IMG/VR virus record: IMGVR_UViG_2695420701_000007
Span: 1 to 33,807 of that record
Length of the DNA: 33,807 nucleotides
Reading direction: 5' to 3' (one strand)
From: a virus
Lineage: Duplodnaviria; Heunggongvirae; Uroviricota; Caudoviricetes
Shown: one piece after another, positions 23,316 to 33,807 of the stretch
Layout: the number at the start of each line of letters is the position of its first letter
Numbering within the stretch: position 1 is the stretch's first letter
Notes under the pieces: model-generated
Databases searched by the model: none
Told to the model about the DNA's origin: nothing
The model's input: the letters and a program-made list of their open reading frames with translations, nothing else
Program-made: the position numbers and the translations under genes

Positions 23316-23492
23316 GATGTGGCCTCTATGTGTGTAAGTTTTGAAAACTCACCATCCAGAGCTGCGAAACTGTGGGTGGCGAGACGTACGAGGTTCGCAG
23401 TACCGGCAAACATAGAACCCGGCCCGACCGAAGTCGGCCCCGTACGCCCCACCATAATTCGTGTGCGAAAAAGATGTGGCGATACAGTACGC

Positions 23493-23515
23493 ACAAAAAA
23501 ACCGCTGGCGCGGTT
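23493..23515 (-). terminator. Rho-independent terminator candidate (minus strand)
   Basis: Minus-strand reading AACCGCGCCAGCGGTTTTTTTGTG: GC-rich hairpin (ACCGC/GCGGT) followed by a T7 run, inside a roughly 320-bp non-coding stretch. Confidence 0.5.
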
Positions 23516-23635
23516 GTGCGCTATGTTTGTCAGCGGGCTGCGAAACCCGGCACCCGTTTTATGAGGTGCAGCGGAAATGTAACCTGACTGATTGCGACAT
23601 GGCAAGCGGTTTTTTTGTGTGTGCATGATGATCAC

Positions 23636-24190: not shown

Positions 24191-24492
24191 GATTTGGCCT
24201 CCTTACGGCTTTCTGGTGTGGAGATGATCAGATTCAGTTTCAGGGCGGTGGCGTGTTCCTCTTTTGCCCCCGGCGAGTCCTCCCAGCCATCCAGCAGGTA
24301 AATCACATCGGCACAGTGCAGCATGGCGCTCCCGATAAGCATGTAGTCCCTGTATCTCAGCCCGTCAGGGAGTGTTGCGGGGTTGAGTACGGTATGACCC
24401 TGCATCCTCAGGCGGGTCGCCGTCATGGTGAAGGCGGTGCGGTTGAAATCAGGCTTCCCCGTCATGGGGCCAGCGATATAGATAACGGCCAT
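24181..24492 (-). CDS. Nucleoside 2-deoxyribosyltransferase-like protein (DUF4406-like)
   Basis: 103 aa starting MAVIYIAGPMTGKPDFNRTAF, the typical N-terminus of the DUF4406 / deoxyribosyltransferase-like fold found in phages. Confidence 0.5.
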   Translation of the reverse strand: MAVIYIAGPMTGKPDFNRTAFTMTATRLRMQGHTVLNPATLPDGLRYRDYMLIGSAMLHCADVIYLLDGWEDSPGAKEEHATALKLNLIISTPESRKEAKSCF

Positions 24493-25451
24493 TACATGAT
24501 CTCCGTGGTGGGGTGTGGAGCGGGAATGTGAGACAGCCAGCCCGCATTGACATCCCGGATCCGGACCTCACGGGCTGGCGGATAAACACCAATCACCTCT
24601 TTTGCCTGCTGGCGTGCACTGCTGCTGGCAGCCACAGCGCGGCGAACGCTCAGGGTGTGCAGCTCAAACGAGGAATAGATCTGCCGGGTTTCGGAGGTGT
24701 CACTGTTGGAGACCACCGGGTGGATACCGTAACGCTGCCAGGCGTTCATCATGAGCGCCGCAAGGTCACGGTGGTCTTTGCGGGTAAATGCCCGGCCGTT
24801 GTAGTGAGTGAACGCCTCTTTACCGTCCGGTGGCAGGTAGGGCGGATCGCAGTAAATGGCGATATCGCCGTGCACCGAAGAAAAACGGCGGATCTCAGCC
24901 GGCATTGTGAAGGCTGTACGGAAATCCGCGTGAATAAAGCGGGTCCGGGTCTCGTTGGCTTTATCAGCAAACAGGCGCATTTCCTGGCAGGGGAAATAAG
25001 GCATGCGGTGTTTGCCGAATGGCACATTGAATTCGCCTTTTTGGTTGGTGCGGTACAGGCCGTTAAAGCAATGGCGGTTCAGGTACAGAAACAGCGCTGC
25101 CCATTCCAGGGATTCGCCGCGTAATCTGTCGGTGGCCAGCGCGATGGTGTTAAATGCCCCGCGATGGCGTTTGTAGGCTTCCGGTGTGCCGCCATCCTTA
25201 AAGAGCGACCATGCACGATCCATTAATTCCGTGGTGTTGGTCGTCAGTTGCTGGTAGAAATTAATCAGCGCGGGGTTGCTGTCACACAATACGTAATAGT
25301 CATAATCCGTGTTCATGAAGACCGAGCCGCCGCCCACGAAGGGTTCGATCAGGCAGGCGGCTTTGGGTAAATATTCGCGCAGCTGCGGCATGATACTGAA
25401 TTTGCCGCCCGCCCATTTGAGCGGTGAGCGCTGGTTCAGAATACCTTTCAT
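24492..25451 (-). CDS. dam: DNA adenine methyltransferase (Dam-like, D12 class N6-A MTase)
   Basis: 319 aa; N-terminal LKWAGGK motif, catalytic DPPY motif (IAIYCDPPYLPP), FxGxG-like SAM region (EPFVGGGSV). Confidence 0.8.
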   Translation of the reverse strand: MKGILNQRSPLKWAGGKFSIMPQLREYLPKAACLIEPFVGGGSVFMNTDYDYYVLCDSNPALINFYQQLTTNTTELMDRAWSLFKDGGTPEAYKRHRGAFNTIALATDRLRGESLEWAALFLYLNRHCFNGLYRTNQKGEFNVPFGKHRMPYFPCQEMRLFADKANETRTRFIHADFRTAFTMPAEIRRFSSVHGDIAIYCDPPYLPPDGKEAFTHYNGRAFTRKDHRDLAALMMNAWQRYGIHPVVSNSDTSETRQIYSSFELHTLSVRRAVAASSSARQQAKEVIGVYPPAREVRIRDVNAGWLSHIPAPHPTTEIM

Positions 25452-25687
25452 GCGTCACTCTCCGGTTTTTTCCCGCGTGTGAATGGGGTGGGTTCGAGCG
25501 TGATTTCGCGCCGGATATTGCGCACGCGTAACTGCGAGCCGTCGTTCAGGCAGATCACGCGTTCATCATCCGGGCCGGTGATGTTGTCCAGCAGCGAACG
25601 GTCAGGGTTGATGTGGCGTTCCCTGATGCGGTAATGGTCGCCGGTGACAGTGCTCTCGCACAGAATGCAGATAATGGCGGGTTTCAT
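25448..25687 (-). CDS. Small hypothetical protein
   Basis: 79 aa ORF with CxxC (CILCES) at the N-terminus; ends overlap neighbours. Confidence 0.35.
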   Translation of the reverse strand: MKPAIICILCESTVTGDHYRIRERHINPDRSLLDNITGPDDERVICLNDGSQLRVRNIRREITLEPTPFTRGKKPESDA

Positions 25688-26214
25688 GCGTCAGCCCTCC
25701 ACTGCGACAACATCACGATGTGGGTGAAGGTGTACCGCCAGTAGGTTTCGTTTTTGGGGTTTTCTATGTGGCAGGTGTCCCGCATGAATGCAAAGAGTTC
25801 GTCGCGGGGATGGTTTTCAGGGTTAAAGCCGTCCCTGACGGCCACTTCATCGGTTATCTGGCGGCCCTGTATTACACCGATATCGGCAATGAAGGCCACG
25901 GCGAACGGCACGGTTTCGCCGTTCTTGTTTTCTGTGACCAGATGAATGTTGTCATACTGCCGGTAGGGCTGTCTTTTCAGGAGTCCGGCAAAGTCTGATG
26001 CGCGGGTAAATGTGGTTCCCTCCTCAAAAACCAGGGTACCGCCGGCGCTGTAATCGGGAAGAACGATGTTGCGGGTCAGGGTGTCTTCATGAAAATATTC
26101 TGCTGACTCCTGGCCCGCCTGGTAGCAATCAAACCCCGTCGGGCGAAGGGATGTGGTCTTGCGTCCGTTGCGGAATGCGTCAATAAAGCAGGGCTTAAAT
26201 TTCATCTGTAACAT
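25684..26214 (-). CDS. ASCH/PUA-like domain protein (putative)
   Basis: 176 aa; N-terminus MKFKPCFIDAFRNGRKTTSLRP resembles the start of ASCH-domain proteins. Confidence 0.4.
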   Translation of the reverse strand: MLQMKFKPCFIDAFRNGRKTTSLRPTGFDCYQAGQESAEYFHEDTLTRNIVLPDYSAGGTLVFEEGTTFTRASDFAGLLKRQPYRQYDNIHLVTENKNGETVPFAVAFIADIGVIQGRQITDEVAVRDGFNPENHPRDELFAFMRDTCHIENPKNETYWRYTFTHIVMLSQWRADA

Positions 26215-26278
26215 CGTCTTATCCTCTTCACGTATTCGTTATGGTTAAGCAGTACCCATGTCCGGCCTTCGTCCAGAC

Positions 26279-26455
26279 TTAACAGCCGGTAACGGTACAT
26301 GACGTTGATGACGCGGGCGGTACCCGCTCCAGCCGTCGCACGTGTGACCGGTCCCCCTTCAGCAGGCGACGGTATGCCGCCCTTGCTGCCCGCTCCGGCT
26401 TTCCCCCTGGCTTCATCCGGTTTTTGCGGTGTCGCGCAGGGATAATCAGCTTCAT
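26279..26455 (-). CDS. Small basic hypothetical protein (not in supplied ORF track)
   Basis: 58 codons by hand translation (MKLIIPARHRKNRMKPGGKPERAARAAYRRLLKGDRSHVRRLERVPPASSTSCTVTGC); its ATG overlaps the stop of the upstream gene (ATGA), suggesting translational coupling. Confidence 0.35.
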   Translation of the reverse strand: MKLIIPARHRKNRMKPGGKPERAARAAYRRLLKGDRSHVRRLERVPPASSTSCTVTGC

Positions 26456-26874
26456 TTGTCGGGGGTTATTTCCAGGTTTCTGGTCTTTACCCAGCGGTCT
26501 TCCTCGAAGGGGGAATCGAAACGGACGAAAACCCGGTCAATGGCGGGGCTACTGGTGCGGGTGTCAACGACCGTTCCGCGTTGCTGCGGACTGTTTTTCA
26601 GACATACGCGGGTCCCTTTGATGAATGTGGTGTGGCAGGTGTGTTCAGCACTTTCCTTTGCCGGGTCAGCTGCTGTCTGAAGGGTGGCAAGCTGATTTCT
26701 CAGACAGGTGTTTTCCTGTACCACCTGTTCAATTGCGTCTGCGGCGATAAGGTGAGGCTCCACTGACAGCACCATCATCGGGTTGTCAGTGTCAGCCATC
26801 ATTGCGGCGTAGTTGCGTAAAAACATTGCGCCCGCAAGGGCTTTATCTTTGAGGGTGAGTGTCGGATTAATCAT
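26452..26874 (-). CDS. Hypothetical protein
   Basis: 140 aa ORF in the early operon. Confidence 0.4.
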   Translation of the reverse strand: MINPTLTLKDKALAGAMFLRNYAAMMADTDNPMMVLSVEPHLIAADAIEQVVQENTCLRNQLATLQTAADPAKESAEHTCHTTFIKGTRVCLKNSPQQRGTVVDTRTSSPAIDRVFVRFDSPFEEDRWVKTRNLEITPDK

Positions 26875-26970
26875 TTTTATTTCCCTTATTCAGATTGTGC
26901 GAATCCCGCCGCGTGAGCGGTGTATTAACGAAACCGGTTAATTAACTAAAGAGGCGGCGTGCTTTACGCT

Positions 26971-27156
26971 CTACGTCTTCTTTGTGCTGAATGAATGCGT
27001 TGTATGCATCCCGTTTTTTTTCTGGCGACGTCTGTCGCGTATTTCCCGCCATGTATCAATAAGTGTCAGTATGCAGATGGCAAAAAACATTGCGGCTGCA
27101 ATCAGTGTGATAACAAATAACGACTCCGGTACACTGAATGAATAACTGAAATTCAT
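26971..27156 (-). CDS. Small single-pass membrane protein
   Basis: 61 aa; hydrophobic helix LFVITLIAAAMFFAICILTLI followed by basic tail RDRRRQKKNG. Confidence 0.4.
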   Translation of the reverse strand: MNFSYSFSVPESLFVITLIAAAMFFAICILTLIDTWREIRDRRRQKKNGMHTTHSFSTKKT

Positions 27157-27161
27157 CGTGA

Positions 27162-27404
27162 TTACTCCGTAATTATTGCGGGTTCGGGAACCATGCCATC
27201 CGTTAATTGTTTCGCCATCCGGTTAAGTTCTTTAAGGTCCTCGCTGGCTCCCGTATCTTTTGAACAAAACAGGGTGTTGCGGACGCTGAATATTCCGCAC
27301 TTCATTACTTCGAAGTGTGTTTTTCTGGCGCGGGGATTAATTTCGTTATCGAAGTAATATCCCTGCAGAAATTCGTTTACCTGTTCTGCTGTGTGTTTTC
27401 TCAT
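27162..27404 (-). CDS. Hypothetical protein
   Basis: 80 aa ORF, 5 nt upstream of the small membrane protein gene. Confidence 0.4.
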   Translation of the reverse strand: MRKHTAEQVNEFLQGYYFDNEINPRARKTHFEVMKCGIFSVRNTLFCSKDTGASEDLKELNRMAKQLTDGMVPEPAIITE

Positions 27405-27445
27405 AACGGAGTCCTCGTTAAAAATAACCGGTGATAAACCCGCTG

Positions 27446-27796
27446 TTATAACTCAGCCTGTTTAATAAAATTTTCTCCGTAAAGAAGGCGATCAACTGTG
27501 CGTAGCGCTTCGTACAACGTGAAATCCTGCCCGAACTGATTGTCGCCGCAGCTCAGAGCAAAAATGCGGTTTCCGGTAAACGGATTGCGCGGGTATTTGT
27601 GGACCACTATTCCAGCTTTCTCAATCATCCAGGTATGCTCGCCAATTTGTTTTACTGTATGGCCATCTGGTGTTGCGTGCGTCTCGTTCAGGTTATAGCG
27701 ACTGTTACTACGTGATGCACTGGTAGCGACGTGGTGTACATGGCGTTCTACGCCATTACGAAATTTGGAGTATGGATTATTAGTGTTTTTTTTCAT
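27446..27796 (-). CDS. Hypothetical protein
   Basis: 116 aa ORF in the early operon. Confidence 0.4.
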   Translation of the reverse strand: MKKNTNNPYSKFRNGVERHVHHVATSASRSNSRYNLNETHATPDGHTVKQIGEHTWMIEKAGIVVHKYPRNPFTGNRIFALSCGDNQFGQDFTLYEALRTVDRLLYGENFIKQAEL

Positions 27797-27817
27797 GATG
27801 ATGCTCTGTTCATTGTT

Positions 27818-28021
27818 TTAGCTGTTAGCCAAAGCGTCTTTTAACATCGCCACAAGGTTTACTTCAGGCTTTTCCATTTTGGCGCGTTTGGGGCGGATAA
27901 TAATTCGACCGTCAGCCAACATCTTTTTGCATGTATTAAGAGGGATACCTGTTATCTCTGCATATTTCTGCAGGGATACATAGGGGGCATTCACATTGAT
28001 ATTGATGGTTATACCTGACAT
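27818..28021 (-). CDS. Cox-like HTH regulator / excisionase-type protein
   Basis: 67 aa; APYVSLQKYAEITGIPLNTCKKMLADGRIIIRP follows the pattern of P2 Cox N-terminus (IPYQEFAKLIGKSTGAVRRMIDKGKLPVI). Confidence 0.5.
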   Translation of the reverse strand: MSGITININVNAPYVSLQKYAEITGIPLNTCKKMLADGRIIIRPKRAKMEKPEVNLVAMLKDALANS

Positions 28022-28037
28022 CCCACTAACCTCCTGA

Positions 28038-28244
28038 TCAGGAAGATTTGTTTTGTTCTTTCTGGGTTAGCTCTAGGCCGCGAAGGAAGATCATGCGCGC
28101 CATGTTAGAGGATGAGCGTTGTTCTTTAGCTGCCATCTCATCAATAAAGGCGCGCTCCTCCGCTGACAGTCGAAGTGCCAGTCTTTGACCTGTGGCGGTG
28201 TTACGCGGAATGCGTGACTTGGTGTCGTGACTAACTTGATTCAT
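28038..28244 (-). CDS. Ribbon-helix-helix-like small regulator; first gene of the early operon (Cro/Apl position)
   Basis: 68 aa; RLALRLSAEERAFIDEMA...SSNMARMIF resembles an RHH (Arc/CopG-type) fold; divergent from the repressor gene. Confidence 0.45.
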   Translation of the reverse strand: MNQVSHDTKSRIPRNTATGQRLALRLSAEERAFIDEMAAKEQRSSSNMARMIFLRGLELTQKEQNKSS

Positions 28245-28303
28245 AGTGGTACATTGTGATCATCTAATGGTTCGTGAAATTACTTTAGGGAACAAAACTT
28301 CCT
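28245..28303. promoter_or_regulatory. Divergent promoter/operator region of the lysis-lysogeny switch
   Basis: 59-bp gap between divergent repressor (plus) and early-operon (minus) starts; contains the TGATCA palindrome (with a GATC Dam site) in ACATTGTGATCATCTAATGG. Confidence 0.5.
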
Positions 28304-28717
28304 ATGTCAACAGAAAAAGAGGAACTAAGCGTCATTATTGGCCGTCGATTACGGGAGGAGCGAGAGAAAATTGGCATGACCCAAGATGATATGGCGTCGA
28401 TTTTTGAAGTTTCTACAAAGACTTGGGGGAAGTATGAAAGAGGGGTGACTACACCGGATGCAGTTATGTTGAATCTCTTGGGAGGGCGCTGCGGAGTAGA
28501 TGTCTATTACATACTTTCTGGTAGTCGTGCACATGGCATCCCTAATGCTACTGAAGATGAGATTGAGCTAATTAAAATATATCGTTCTGCACCTTTGGCT
28601 GTTAAGGCGGCAGCTTTGGCAGCCTTGACTGCTGGTAGTTTGTCTCTAGGTACAATAAGAGCTTCTGGCAAAGGCCATCGTATTGCAGGTCGTGACTATA
28701 ACGAAACGAAGGGTTAG
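28304..28717 (+). CDS. Immunity repressor, XRE-family HTH (CI/C-like)
   Basis: 137 aa; N-terminal HTH (GMTQDDMASIFEVSTKTWGKYERG); divergent from the early operon and co-oriented with integrase. Confidence 0.7.
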   Translation: MSTEKEELSVIIGRRLREEREKIGMTQDDMASIFEVSTKTWGKYERGVTTPDAVMLNLLGGRCGVDVYYILSGSRAHGIPNATEDEIELIKIYRSAPLAVKAAALAALTAGSLSLGTIRASGKGHRIAGRDYNETKG

Positions 28718-28735: not shown

Positions 28736-29383
28736 ATGGCTGTCAACTCAAACGGTTCAGACAATCGCGTTTCTGGGCGTGATTACCACGAAAAGAACAT
28801 TCGGATAGAGCGGTATGATGGTCGTCATACAGTCAACATTGCAATCCCTTCCTGTGGGGCTGATGAGCGCCCATTAGTCAAGGCTCAGCGCCATCAACTG
28901 AAGTTGTTGGTTGATAAGATTGTTGATGTCAGCAAGGAAGAATCGTTTGTTGTCTGGCGTAAACTTCATGCTGAAATCGGTGTTGATAGCATCGATAAGA
29001 TGACGGTGAATCAGTATCCAACCGCAATTAGCTTCCTCAATGCGATGCTTGACCGACATAAAGAGCGCGACGCCTGCAAATCACTTGTAAGTCTCCTTCT
29101 TCGCAATAGTGAGAATAATGAAGCTAGACAAAAACTTCTTCGATATTGTCATATCAATTTTGGAACAGGGCGCTTAAATGATCTTACTCGCTCTCAGCTT
29201 CAGATGGCTCTTTCATGGTTAGATCAGCAAACAACAGACTGTGAAAATAATTTGCCCTCAGATAATTCTAAATTTGTCGATAAACAATCGCGATTAGTGT
29301 TTCAGCAAATAATTAAAACATATCCAAAAGAAATGGGGGTATGTTTTGTTATTGGTGTTTTATTAGGCATGATTCTTTTCTGA
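28736..29383 (+). CDS. Hypothetical C-terminally membrane-anchored protein (cargo between repressor and integrase)
   Basis: 215 aa; single C-terminal hydrophobic helix GVCFVIGVLLGMILF; AT-rich relative to the phage core; co-transcribed orientation with repressor. Confidence 0.5.
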   Translation: MAVNSNGSDNRVSGRDYHEKNIRIERYDGRHTVNIAIPSCGADERPLVKAQRHQLKLLVDKIVDVSKEESFVVWRKLHAEIGVDSIDKMTVNQYPTAISFLNAMLDRHKERDACKSLVSLLLRNSENNEARQKLLRYCHINFGTGRLNDLTRSQLQMALSWLDQQTTDCENNLPSDNSKFVDKQSRLVFQQIIKTYPKEMGVCFVIGVLLGMILF

Positions 29384-29872: not shown

Positions 29873-30874
29873 ATGTCTGTTCGTAAATTACCTACTGGCA
29901 AATGGCTCTGTGAATGCTACCCCTACGGAGCAGCAGGAAAACGCATTCGTAAACAGTTTGTTACTAAGGGTGAGGCGCTCTCTTATGAGCGCCGTTTAAT
30001 GAACAGTAATTTGGGGAGCGAGTTTCAGGATGGTTCTGGCCCCCGCCTTTCCGAGTTGGTTGCTCGCTGGTTTGAGATGTACGGTAAGACACTGTCTTCC
30101 GGTGAAGAGCGAAGGGCTAAACTTGAGGCGATTTGCTCCCGGTTGGGGGATCCGCTTGCTTCTCAATTTGATAAAAACATGTTTGCCACCTACAGGGAAC
30201 GGCGATTATCAGGTGAATGGAATCCAAAGGGGAAGAGGAAGCTTAGCGAAGCAACCGTTAATCGTGAGCAGTCATATCTACATGCTGTTTTTGCCGAACT
30301 GAAGCGCCTTGGGGAGTGGTCTGGTGAAAACCCCTTAACTGGCATTCGCAAATTTCGTGAGGAAGAAAAGGAACTGGCGTTTCTGTATGTAGATGAGATT
30401 GAACGCCTTCTGATTGCGTGTGATGAGTCACGGAATAAAGATTTGGGGGTTGTTGTCCGTATTGGGCTTGCGACTGGTGCTCGGTGGAGTGAAGCAGAAG
30501 GATTAAAGCAATCTCAAGTACTGCCCGGTCGAATCACATTTGTTAAAACTAAAGGAAAGAAGAACCGCACTGTACCGATTTCACCTCAATTGCAGGCTAT
30601 GCTTCCTAAAAAACGAGGAGCGCTATTTTCACCATGTTATGAGGCTTTTGACGCTGCAATTAAGAGAGCGAAGATCGAGCTTCCTGATGGGCAATTAACT
30701 CATGTGCTACGTCACACGTTTGCCAGTCATTTTATGATGCGGGGCGGAAATATTCTTGTGTTGCAAAAAATACTGGGGCATAGCGATATAAAAATGACTA
30801 TGCGTTATGCGCATTTTGCTCCAGGTCATTTAGAGGCTGCTGTTGAATTGAACCCTTTTGACAATAGAGGGTAA
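29873..30874 (+). CDS. int: Tyrosine integrase (phage integrase family)
   Basis: 333 aa; C-terminal catalytic region HVLRHTFASHFMMRGGNILVLQKILGHSDIKMTMRYAHF (HxxR ... Y); adjacent to the tRNA-derived att core. Confidence 0.85.
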   Translation: MSVRKLPTGKWLCECYPYGAAGKRIRKQFVTKGEALSYERRLMNSNLGSEFQDGSGPRLSELVARWFEMYGKTLSSGEERRAKLEAICSRLGDPLASQFDKNMFATYRERRLSGEWNPKGKRKLSEATVNREQSYLHAVFAELKRLGEWSGENPLTGIRKFREEEKELAFLYVDEIERLLIACDESRNKDLGVVVRIGLATGARWSEAEGLKQSQVLPGRITFVKTKGKKNRTVPISPQLQAMLPKKRGALFSPCYEAFDAAIKRAKIELPDGQLTHVLRHTFASHFMMRGGNILVLQKILGHSDIKMTMRYAHFAPGHLEAAVELNPFDNRG

Positions 30875-33711: not shown

Positions 33712-33807
33712 CTGATGAATCCCCTAATGATTTTGGTAAAAATCATTAAGTTAAGGTGGATACACATCTTGTCATATGATCAAATGGTTTCGCGAAAAAT
33801 CAATAAT
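33712..33807 (+). mobile_element. IS10 (Tn10-type) outside end, partial; extends beyond the window
   Basis: CTGATGAATCCCCTAATGATTTTGGTAAAAATCATTAAGTTAAGGTGGATACACATCTTGTCATATGATCAAATGGTTTCGCGAAAAATCAATAAT matches the IS10 outside terminus as I recall it (terminal inverted repeat, pIN promoter region with its GATC site). Confidence 0.75.

Follow-up and report, generated by a model that had tools for sequence, protein, structure and literature searches.

Gene content and setting of the locus

The stretch analysed here (the window; 33,807 nt) carries a P2-like prophage of Escherichia coli. On its minus strand, five small open reading frames (ORFs; 26279-27796) sit between a Cox-like gene and a Dam methylase gene (Table 1). 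A preliminary description had reported these five ORFs, and all of them are present in the ORF listing: a DUF4761 gene, p80, the membrane protein gene tm61, p140, and a 58-codon ORF. It had also seen no recognisable function in the run. Families can be recognised (DUF4761, phrog_2549, phrog_20495 and PF24732), but the statement stands in that none of them has a tested function. Rfam and tRNA scans found nothing within 26279-27796, and PADLOC-DB gave no meaningful defence-system match for any ORF, the only hit being a chance-level score of 13 bits between p140 and a Type I specificity-subunit model.

A Pe-like sigma-70 promoter was located immediately 5′ of the Arc-like gene. In a scan of positions 25400-28500 it was the sole strong promoter-like site on the minus strand, and the same scan gave no convincing terminator and no convincing internal promoter. 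This site is predicted to head the leftward early operon; expression from Pe alone would follow from a consensus scan that can miss promoters. In related loci, a Phage_GPA replication gene lies at the continuation of the operon. From p140 onward to dam, each successive gene pair overlaps by 4-13 nt, and this holds for the stop and start codons of ParE_like/p176, p176/p79 and p79/dam too. The preliminary description had called the 58-codon ORF translationally coupled, and its start does overlap the stop of the 140-aa ORF as ATGA; the overlap is not peculiar to this pair, since overlaps run on downstream.

Four complete E. coli genomes (CFSAN029787, RMDEC332, RMDEC364 and VL46) match positions 26100-28100 at 100% identity. 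The only widespread part is ~27430-28100, with the DUF4761, Cox-like and Arc-like genes, which was found in 1367 of 5426 complete E. coli genomes. This part shares 84-93% identity with the Xuanwuvirus phages 520873 and P88, which are its nearest sequenced phages over the switch region. The segment with p80, tm61, p140 and ParE_like occurs in only five of the 5426 genomes and is common among Salmonella prophages.

Phage P2 carries small unnamed orfs between cox and A, and phage 186 has fil and dhr as accessory early genes. By position and layout, the five ORFs are presumably comparable to these genes: they lie 3′ of a Cox/Apl-type gene and 5′ of a gene A homologue, and they are small, tightly packed and variable between relatives. 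This region makes up the variable accessory portion of the prophage's Pe early (lytic) operon. It occupies a different site from the known P2 defence hotspot, which adjoins cos (PMC9122126).

Table 1 Features of the early operon in the window, in order of transcription
Feature	Coordinates	Strand	Assignment or remark
Pe-like sigma-70 promoter	28282..28310	-	TTGACA-17-TAAAGT; consensus match only, 10/12 positions
Arc-like ribbon-helix-helix repressor gene	28038..28244	-	phrog_3431, E 2.7e-27; weak RHH_5 match
Cox-like excisionase/repressor gene	27818..28021	-	phrog_575, E 1.2e-27
DUF4761 protein, 116 aa	27446..27796	-	First of the five ORFs; PF15958, phrog_2492; PGAP-annotated
p80, 80 aa	27162..27404	-	phrog_2549, E 1.4e-26
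tm61, 61-aa single-pass membrane protein	26971..27156	-	Transmembrane (TM) residues ~13-33; without PGAP annotation
p140, 140 aa	26452..26874	-	phrog_20495; predicted model with N-terminal helical hairpin, disordered linker and C-terminal SH3/Tudor/KOW-like barrel
ParE_like (PF24732) pseudogene, whole	26202..26455	-	Frameshifted gene
58-codon ORF	26279..26455	-	ParE_like codons 1-48 plus 10 out-of-frame codons; no Pfam match alone
(CCGC)2, site of 4-bp deletion	26313..26320	-	(CCGC)3 in intact alleles, from alignments
32-codon ORF	26202..26300	-	ParE_like codons 54-85; PGAP: 'ParE family toxin-like protein'
p176, 176-aa ASCH-like protein	25684..26214	-	phrog_27392; outside the five-ORF run
p79, 79-aa gene	25448-25687	-	
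Dam methylase gene	24492-25451	-	

Four of the five ORFs are conserved

The preliminary description had proposed conservation in related prophages as a test of these ORFs. DUF4761, p80, tm61 and p140 keep their order in ~40 Salmonella, Serratia and E. coli prophage loci, and dN/dS was 0.05-0.46 across p80, tm61 and p140, the three genes for which it was tested. Judged from the sequence comparisons, these four are genuine conserved protein-coding genes; the 58-codon ORF is not conserved in this manner (see below).

The DUF4761 protein matches PF15958 over the full profile (positions 1-105 of 105; 219 bits, E 7e-66; threshold 27 bits). It is conserved only in E. coli and Shigella loci, dN/dS gave no comparison, no Shine-Dalgarno sequence is evident upstream of the gene, and a literature search for the family returned no papers. 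The p80 gene is annotated by PGAP and has a GAGGA Shine-Dalgarno sequence 7 nt 5′ of its start; its orthologues in Salmonella and Serratia loci are 79-89% identical, with dN/dS of 0.05-0.09. PGAP also annotates p140, which a Shine-Dalgarno site precedes. For p140 we obtained no Pfam match and no tblastn match against 50,697 phage records, and its Foldseek matches in BFVD were limited to unnamed proteins and small SH3-like domains. PDB sequence searches with p140, DUF4761 and p80 yielded nothing meaningful.

The 61-aa ORF had been described as a single-pass membrane protein with a basic tail, and this was borne out by one hydrophobic segment (Kyte-Doolittle 19-mer maximum 2.84) and a C-terminal tail with 9 K/R versus 3 D/E residues. 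A GGAG Shine-Dalgarno sequence is present. Orthologues of 41-52% identity directly follow p80 in nearly every locus (dN/dS 0.22-0.46) and share the N-terminal motif MN(I)(N/S)YSF(T/S)(I/V)PES; tblastn against the 50,697 phage records found no match. tm61 is a real gene overlooked by PGAP. Salmonella orthologues reach 30-31 bits against LapA_dom (PF06305; threshold 28), with which they share a single TM helix and a basic stretch, whereas the protein of the window scores 14 bits. This match is uninformative on function because it covers little beyond the TM helix. LapA is a chromosomal protein and not a phage one.

Could tm61, possibly together with p80, act as a small membrane toxin or a superinfection-exclusion factor? 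The predicted single TM helix with a basic cytoplasmic tail would suit such a role, as would the conserved position directly 3′ of p80 and the p80/tm61 distance correlation of 0.70. Three loci (L004, L007 and L034) carry an unrelated 80-aa plus 70-aa TM pair in the same slot, a TM protein is also present in L035, and Salmonella orthologues show sub-threshold Cpta_toxin matches (E 0.002-0.003). However, these matches reach 18 bits where the cut-off is 27, no family other than LapA_dom (essentially a TM-helix match) exceeds its threshold, and PADLOC gave no match for tm61. The tail tolerates frameshifts at an A8 run (L014 and L032), and a gene in a lytic operon that is repressed in lysogens would be ill-suited to encode an exclusion factor, which the lysogen must make. 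The data neither support nor refute this role, which we consider distinctly unlikely.

The 58-codon ORF is the 5′ part of a frameshifted ParE_like gene

The preliminary description had stated that the 58-codon ORF is missing from the supplied ORF track, and PGAP does not call it in the 100% identical genomes either. Its status as a fifth gene did not hold up. In E. coli FDAARGOS_943, which is 99% identical over the stretch, the 58- and 32-codon ORFs are joined as one 85-codon gene, and alignment of the window with this genome places a 4-bp gap in CCGCCCGCCCGC, with (CCGC)2 left. In line with this, tblastn with the intact protein as query located residues 1-48 and 48-85 in different frames. The deletion thereby splits the PF24732 domain across two frames.

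An independent functional small gene, missed by annotation, had been the earlier interpretation of the 58-codon ORF. It has an ATG start coupled to the upstream ORF as ATGA and a frame open over 58 codons. Against this, codons 1-48 reproduce the N-terminus of the 85-aa protein exactly and are conserved only as part of it, codons 49-58 are out of frame and restricted to the lineage that carries the 4-bp deletion, and the ORF alone has no Pfam, PHROG or NCBIfam match. Every other lineage encodes the 85-aa form. We regard an independent gene as highly improbable.

Four complete E. coli genomes carry the broken allele, as do three IMG/VR contigs (two of E. coli and one of Shigella flexneri 1485-80). 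Because the same allele recurs in these seven assemblies, a sequencing artefact was ruled out. We propose that slippage in the (CCGC)3 repeat removed 4 bp from the 85-codon gene. Translation coupled to the 140-aa ORF would then yield no more than 58 residues, comprising strand 1, helix 1 and strand 2. The frameshift precedes the third strand, and 18 of the 28 invariant ParE_like residues sit beyond it. Lacking the conserved sheet and the C-terminal helix of the model, the product should be inactive; some activity could survive in the 58-aa fragment or through reinitiation at the ATG inside the 32-codon ORF.

Further lesions were seen elsewhere. ParE_like has lost 1 bp from the GC-rich patch that also holds the 4-bp lesion in a Salmonella diarizonae locus (L071) and 1 bp from an A-run in L072, and it carries a compensated +1/-1 double frameshift in L032. 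It is cleanly absent from L048, L054 and L059, and several database entries are truncated. An excess of such mutations was considered as evidence of toxicity and is unproven: the IMG/VR sets, which are unbiased, hold approximately three independent disruptions each for ParE_like and p140, and because p140 is disrupted about equally often, selected loss of ParE_like is not demonstrated. In FDAARGOS_943, where ParE_like is intact, a 1-bp deletion in p140 creates a 210-aa read-through in another frame. The ORF listing ruled out an in-frame fusion of p140 and ParE_like in this genome, as the read-through frame differs.

Family, fold and spread of intact ParE_like

Intact copies, 98-99% identical to the repaired gene, match PF24732 with 38.6 bits (gathering threshold 24.4 bits), and the 32-codon 3′ fragment alone, which PGAP already names accordingly, scores 24.9 bits, barely over the cut-off. 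The structure model of the intact protein (AF2 pLDDT 86, pTM 0.75) shows a RelE/ParE fold. The repaired gene belongs to the PF24732 ParE_like family and has a minimal RelE/ParE fold; the copy in the window differs from its intact relatives in that it is frameshifted and its 58-codon fragment alone is without a family match.

The intact form is the norm. Salmonella, Serratia and E. coli encode proteins of 85 aa (84-87), IMG/VR contigs and E. coli metagenome contigs also have the intact form, and its dN/dS is 0.10-0.26. Among the 50,697 phage records, tblastn matches were confined to distant, C-terminal ones in Murrayvirus-type phages, in which the 120-aa gene overlapping upstream is unrelated to p140 (hhalign probability 0.1%). 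Of two scans of GTDB representative genomes, one gave no match and the other matched Edwardsiella alone, and this branch of the family is accordingly narrow. A literature search on PF24732 found no paper mentioning the family and no experiment on the toxicity of a member.

We compared ParE_like with the RelE/ParE toxins ParE1/ParE2, PaaA2-ParE2 (from an E. coli O157 prophage), PrpT, YoeB, YafQ, HigB and RelE. Sequence identity was only 4-16%, with no HMM match to the PDB chains, and sequence-level homology to characterised members was not found. No RelE/ParE entry emerged at E ≤ 10 when PDB sequences were searched with a profile, and neither PF05016 nor any NCBIfam model was matched. In the model, the N-terminus of ParE_like forms one helix, whereas these toxins have a two-helix hairpin. 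It also differs from them in genetic context: its upstream partner is without a known antitoxin fold and not obligatory, no dedicated promoter was found, and the gene sits inside a phage lytic operon. ParE_like lacks several of the features by which a classical type II toxin-antitoxin (TA) module is defined.

Neither neighbour of ParE_like is obligatory

The genetic context nevertheless raises the question of whether p140 and ParE_like form a type II TA pair with a non-canonical antitoxin, in which case the window would hold an orphan antitoxin beside a dead toxin. p140 lies directly 5′ of ParE_like with an ATGA overlap in 24 of the 25 IMG/VR loci with ParE_like (the remaining one has a 12-nt gap), it adjoins ParE_like upstream in all Salmonella and Serratia loci, and in Serratia the two stay paired though the flanks differ. 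The predicted fold of ParE_like is toxin-like, its identity (~87% versus ~54% for p140) fits the observation that toxins are often better conserved than antitoxins, and p140 is kept where ParE_like is frameshifted or deleted.

Several observations argue against such a pair. In Edwardsiella ictaluri and E. anguillarum prophages, ParE_like is followed by an ASCH-like gene and there is no p140 homologue. p140 is frameshifted next to an intact ParE_like in L027 and L030, and it is present without ParE_like in L048, L054 and L059. The pairwise distances of ParE_like are only poorly correlated with those of p140 (r = 0.33, compared with 0.65 for ParE_like/p176), and overlapping stop and start codons are the general style of the operon rather than specific to this pair. 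We found no sigma-70-like site in the 96-nt gap 5′ of p140 (26875-26970) using a consensus scan that misses weak promoters. A type II antitoxin would be expected always to adjoin its toxin and be inherited with it, which does not hold for p140, and to have a DNA-binding domain and a toxin-binding region; the p140 model is without an RHH, HTH, Phd/YefM or AbrB DNA-binding fold.

The ASCH-like protein p176 is the neighbour that co-varies best with ParE_like, and it could be its functional partner, either in a reverse-order TA pair like HigBA or in an RNA-directed two-protein unit. Its start overlaps the ParE_like stop by 13 nt, both genes co-occur in E. coli, Salmonella and Edwardsiella (in the latter without p140), and their distance correlation (r = 0.65, Spearman 0.76) is the highest of the pairs involving ParE_like, although it may merely mirror physical linkage. 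Yet the Serratia loci and L034 have ParE_like without p176, and L048, L054 and L059 keep p176 while ParE_like is absent. The ASCH assignment is itself below the Pfam cut-off (16 bits for p176 and 16-19 bits for related copies; cut-off 21). This partnership seems quite improbable.

All four presence/absence combinations occur among p140, ParE_like and p176, so neither p140 nor p176 is obligatory. Because neither neighbour is obligatory to ParE_like, we consider a p140-ParE_like TA pair unlikely. A related scenario, in which this conserved lytic-operon protein of enterobacterial P2-like phages is a true toxin restrained by a partner of a new type (p140 or the ASCH-like p176), is likewise rather doubtful; if true, it would represent a phage-borne TA-like unit for host takeover or counter-defence and not for addiction, repeatedly lost in lysogens.

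An accessory cassette with a putative growth inhibitor

Instead of a TA pair, we prefer to view intact ParE_like as a stand-alone, early-expressed effector with a RelE/ParE fold that is dispensable for the phage. In this proposal, its synthesis would depend on the early transcript alone and begin after derepression, and the protein would inhibit growth in RelE/ParE fashion through a host target, which may be gyrase or ribosome-bound mRNA. Its repeated loss in lysogens would follow from its being dispensable for the phage. The locus as a whole is very probably an accessory early-operon cassette of four real genes and a ParE_like pseudogene that arose by a 4-bp slippage event and whose intact form encodes a putative growth inhibitor.

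For annotation, the locus calls for one ParE_like pseudogene at 26202-26455 and for the addition of the conserved 61-aa membrane protein gene; in identical genomes, PGAP currently calls the 32-codon fragment a CDS and leaves the remainder of ParE_like unannotated. More broadly, our results describe a conserved but uncharacterised cassette that P2-like prophages carry in their early operons, comprising p80, a small TM protein, p140, ParE_like, an ASCH-like protein and Dam, in which the gene with the RelE/ParE fold has repeatedly been struck by slippage indels. This offers a modest starting point for work on an uncharacterised family with a toxin fold that occurs in phage lytic operons. If intact ParE_like is toxic, it would provide a tractable case of a toxin-fold protein serving the lytic programme.

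Possible allelic versions and reading-frame variation among the small early genes

The genes p80 (80 aa, phrog_2549) and tm61 (a 61-aa single-pass membrane protein) occupy a slot that is filled differently in some Salmonella prophages. Three of these loci (L004, L007 and L034) carry, exactly in this position, an unrelated protein of 80-82 aa (MTEHMHGKVTFALKWYEYSNE...) followed by an unrelated single-pass membrane protein of 70-73 aa (MNAFTVAQSW...), the latter being also present in the slot of a further Salmonella prophage locus (L035). This exact replacement by an unrelated pair suggests that the slot holds a two-gene unit existing in two allelic versions. Within tm61 itself, an indel in the A8 run (window ~27014-27021) shifts the tail into another frame in two E. 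coli-type loci (L014 and L032), giving products of 70-71 aa that end in ...KRDAYNAFIQHKE(D/E)VERKARR.... When compared with Salmonella L054, the 61-aa form found in the window appears to be ancestral.

A homopolymer is likewise altered in p140, the 140-aa gene preceding the ParE_like gene. In E. coli FDAARGOS_943 (L002) and in L014, a 1-bp deletion in the terminal C5 run (equivalent to window ~26462-26466) abolishes the p140 stop, and the resulting 210-aa read-through overlaps an intact ParE_like in a different frame. PGAP leaves p140 without annotation where this deletion removes the stop. Salmonella relatives (e.g. L005, 4297-4488) encode an additional 63-aa helical ORF (MDATARQRIVAAGIITKAAE...) between the membrane protein gene and p140; the corresponding slot in the window (26875-26970) is a 96-nt gap with non-coding sequence only.

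Neighbours and a distant homologue of ParE_like

On the downstream side, ParE_like overlaps the gene of the ASCH-like protein p176 by 13 nt at its stop. In pairwise distances p176 covaries with ParE_like (r = 0.65) more strongly than p140 does, and p176 is the neighbour that is kept in Edwardsiella. A distant ParE_like homologue of 78 aa was found in the Murrayvirus Escherichia phage vB-Eco-KMB41 (L013, 800-1036; hhalign probability 96.7%), where it is annotated as 'putative toxin antitoxin system protein' and has lysis genes nearby. It is preceded and overlapped by a 120-aa gene unrelated to p140.

Further features of the window

Additional features in the window
Feature	Position	Strand	Remarks
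p176, ASCH-like, 176 aa	25684-26214	-	phrog_27392; ASCH match sub-threshold
C4 antisense RNA	23372-23459	-	Rfam, 81.8 bits, above gathering score
isrK Hfq-binding RNA	23495-23569	-	Rfam, 69 bits, above gathering score
RNA-OUT (IS10 antisense RNA)	33757-33807	-	Rfam, 60.6 bits; incomplete at window end
Perfect 15-nt inverted repeat	27358-27372 and 27964-27978		arms TATCCCTGCAGAAAT / ATTTCTGCAGGGATA
HTH repressor gene	28304-28717	+	flanks 215-aa ORF
215-aa ORF	28736-29383	+	between HTH repressor gene and integrase
Integrase	29873-30874		flanks 215-aa ORF

The adjacent C4 and isrK matches lie in the same early operon as the small ORFs, farther downstream, in an arrangement reminiscent of two kinds of antirepressor control module, c4-ant of the P1/P7 type and isrK of the Gifsy type. 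As indicated by the RNA-OUT match, an IS10-type element probably adjoins the window edge. The arms of the inverted repeat, located in p80 and the cox-like gene at a spacing of 591 nt, may have arisen by chance.

The 215-aa ORF has a hydrophobic C-terminus and yielded no match in a PADLOC search. In Vibrio P2-related phages, the slot between repressor and integrase is a reported defence hotspot (PMC9122126). The orientation that the ORF shares with the repressor gene makes its expression in the lysogen likely.
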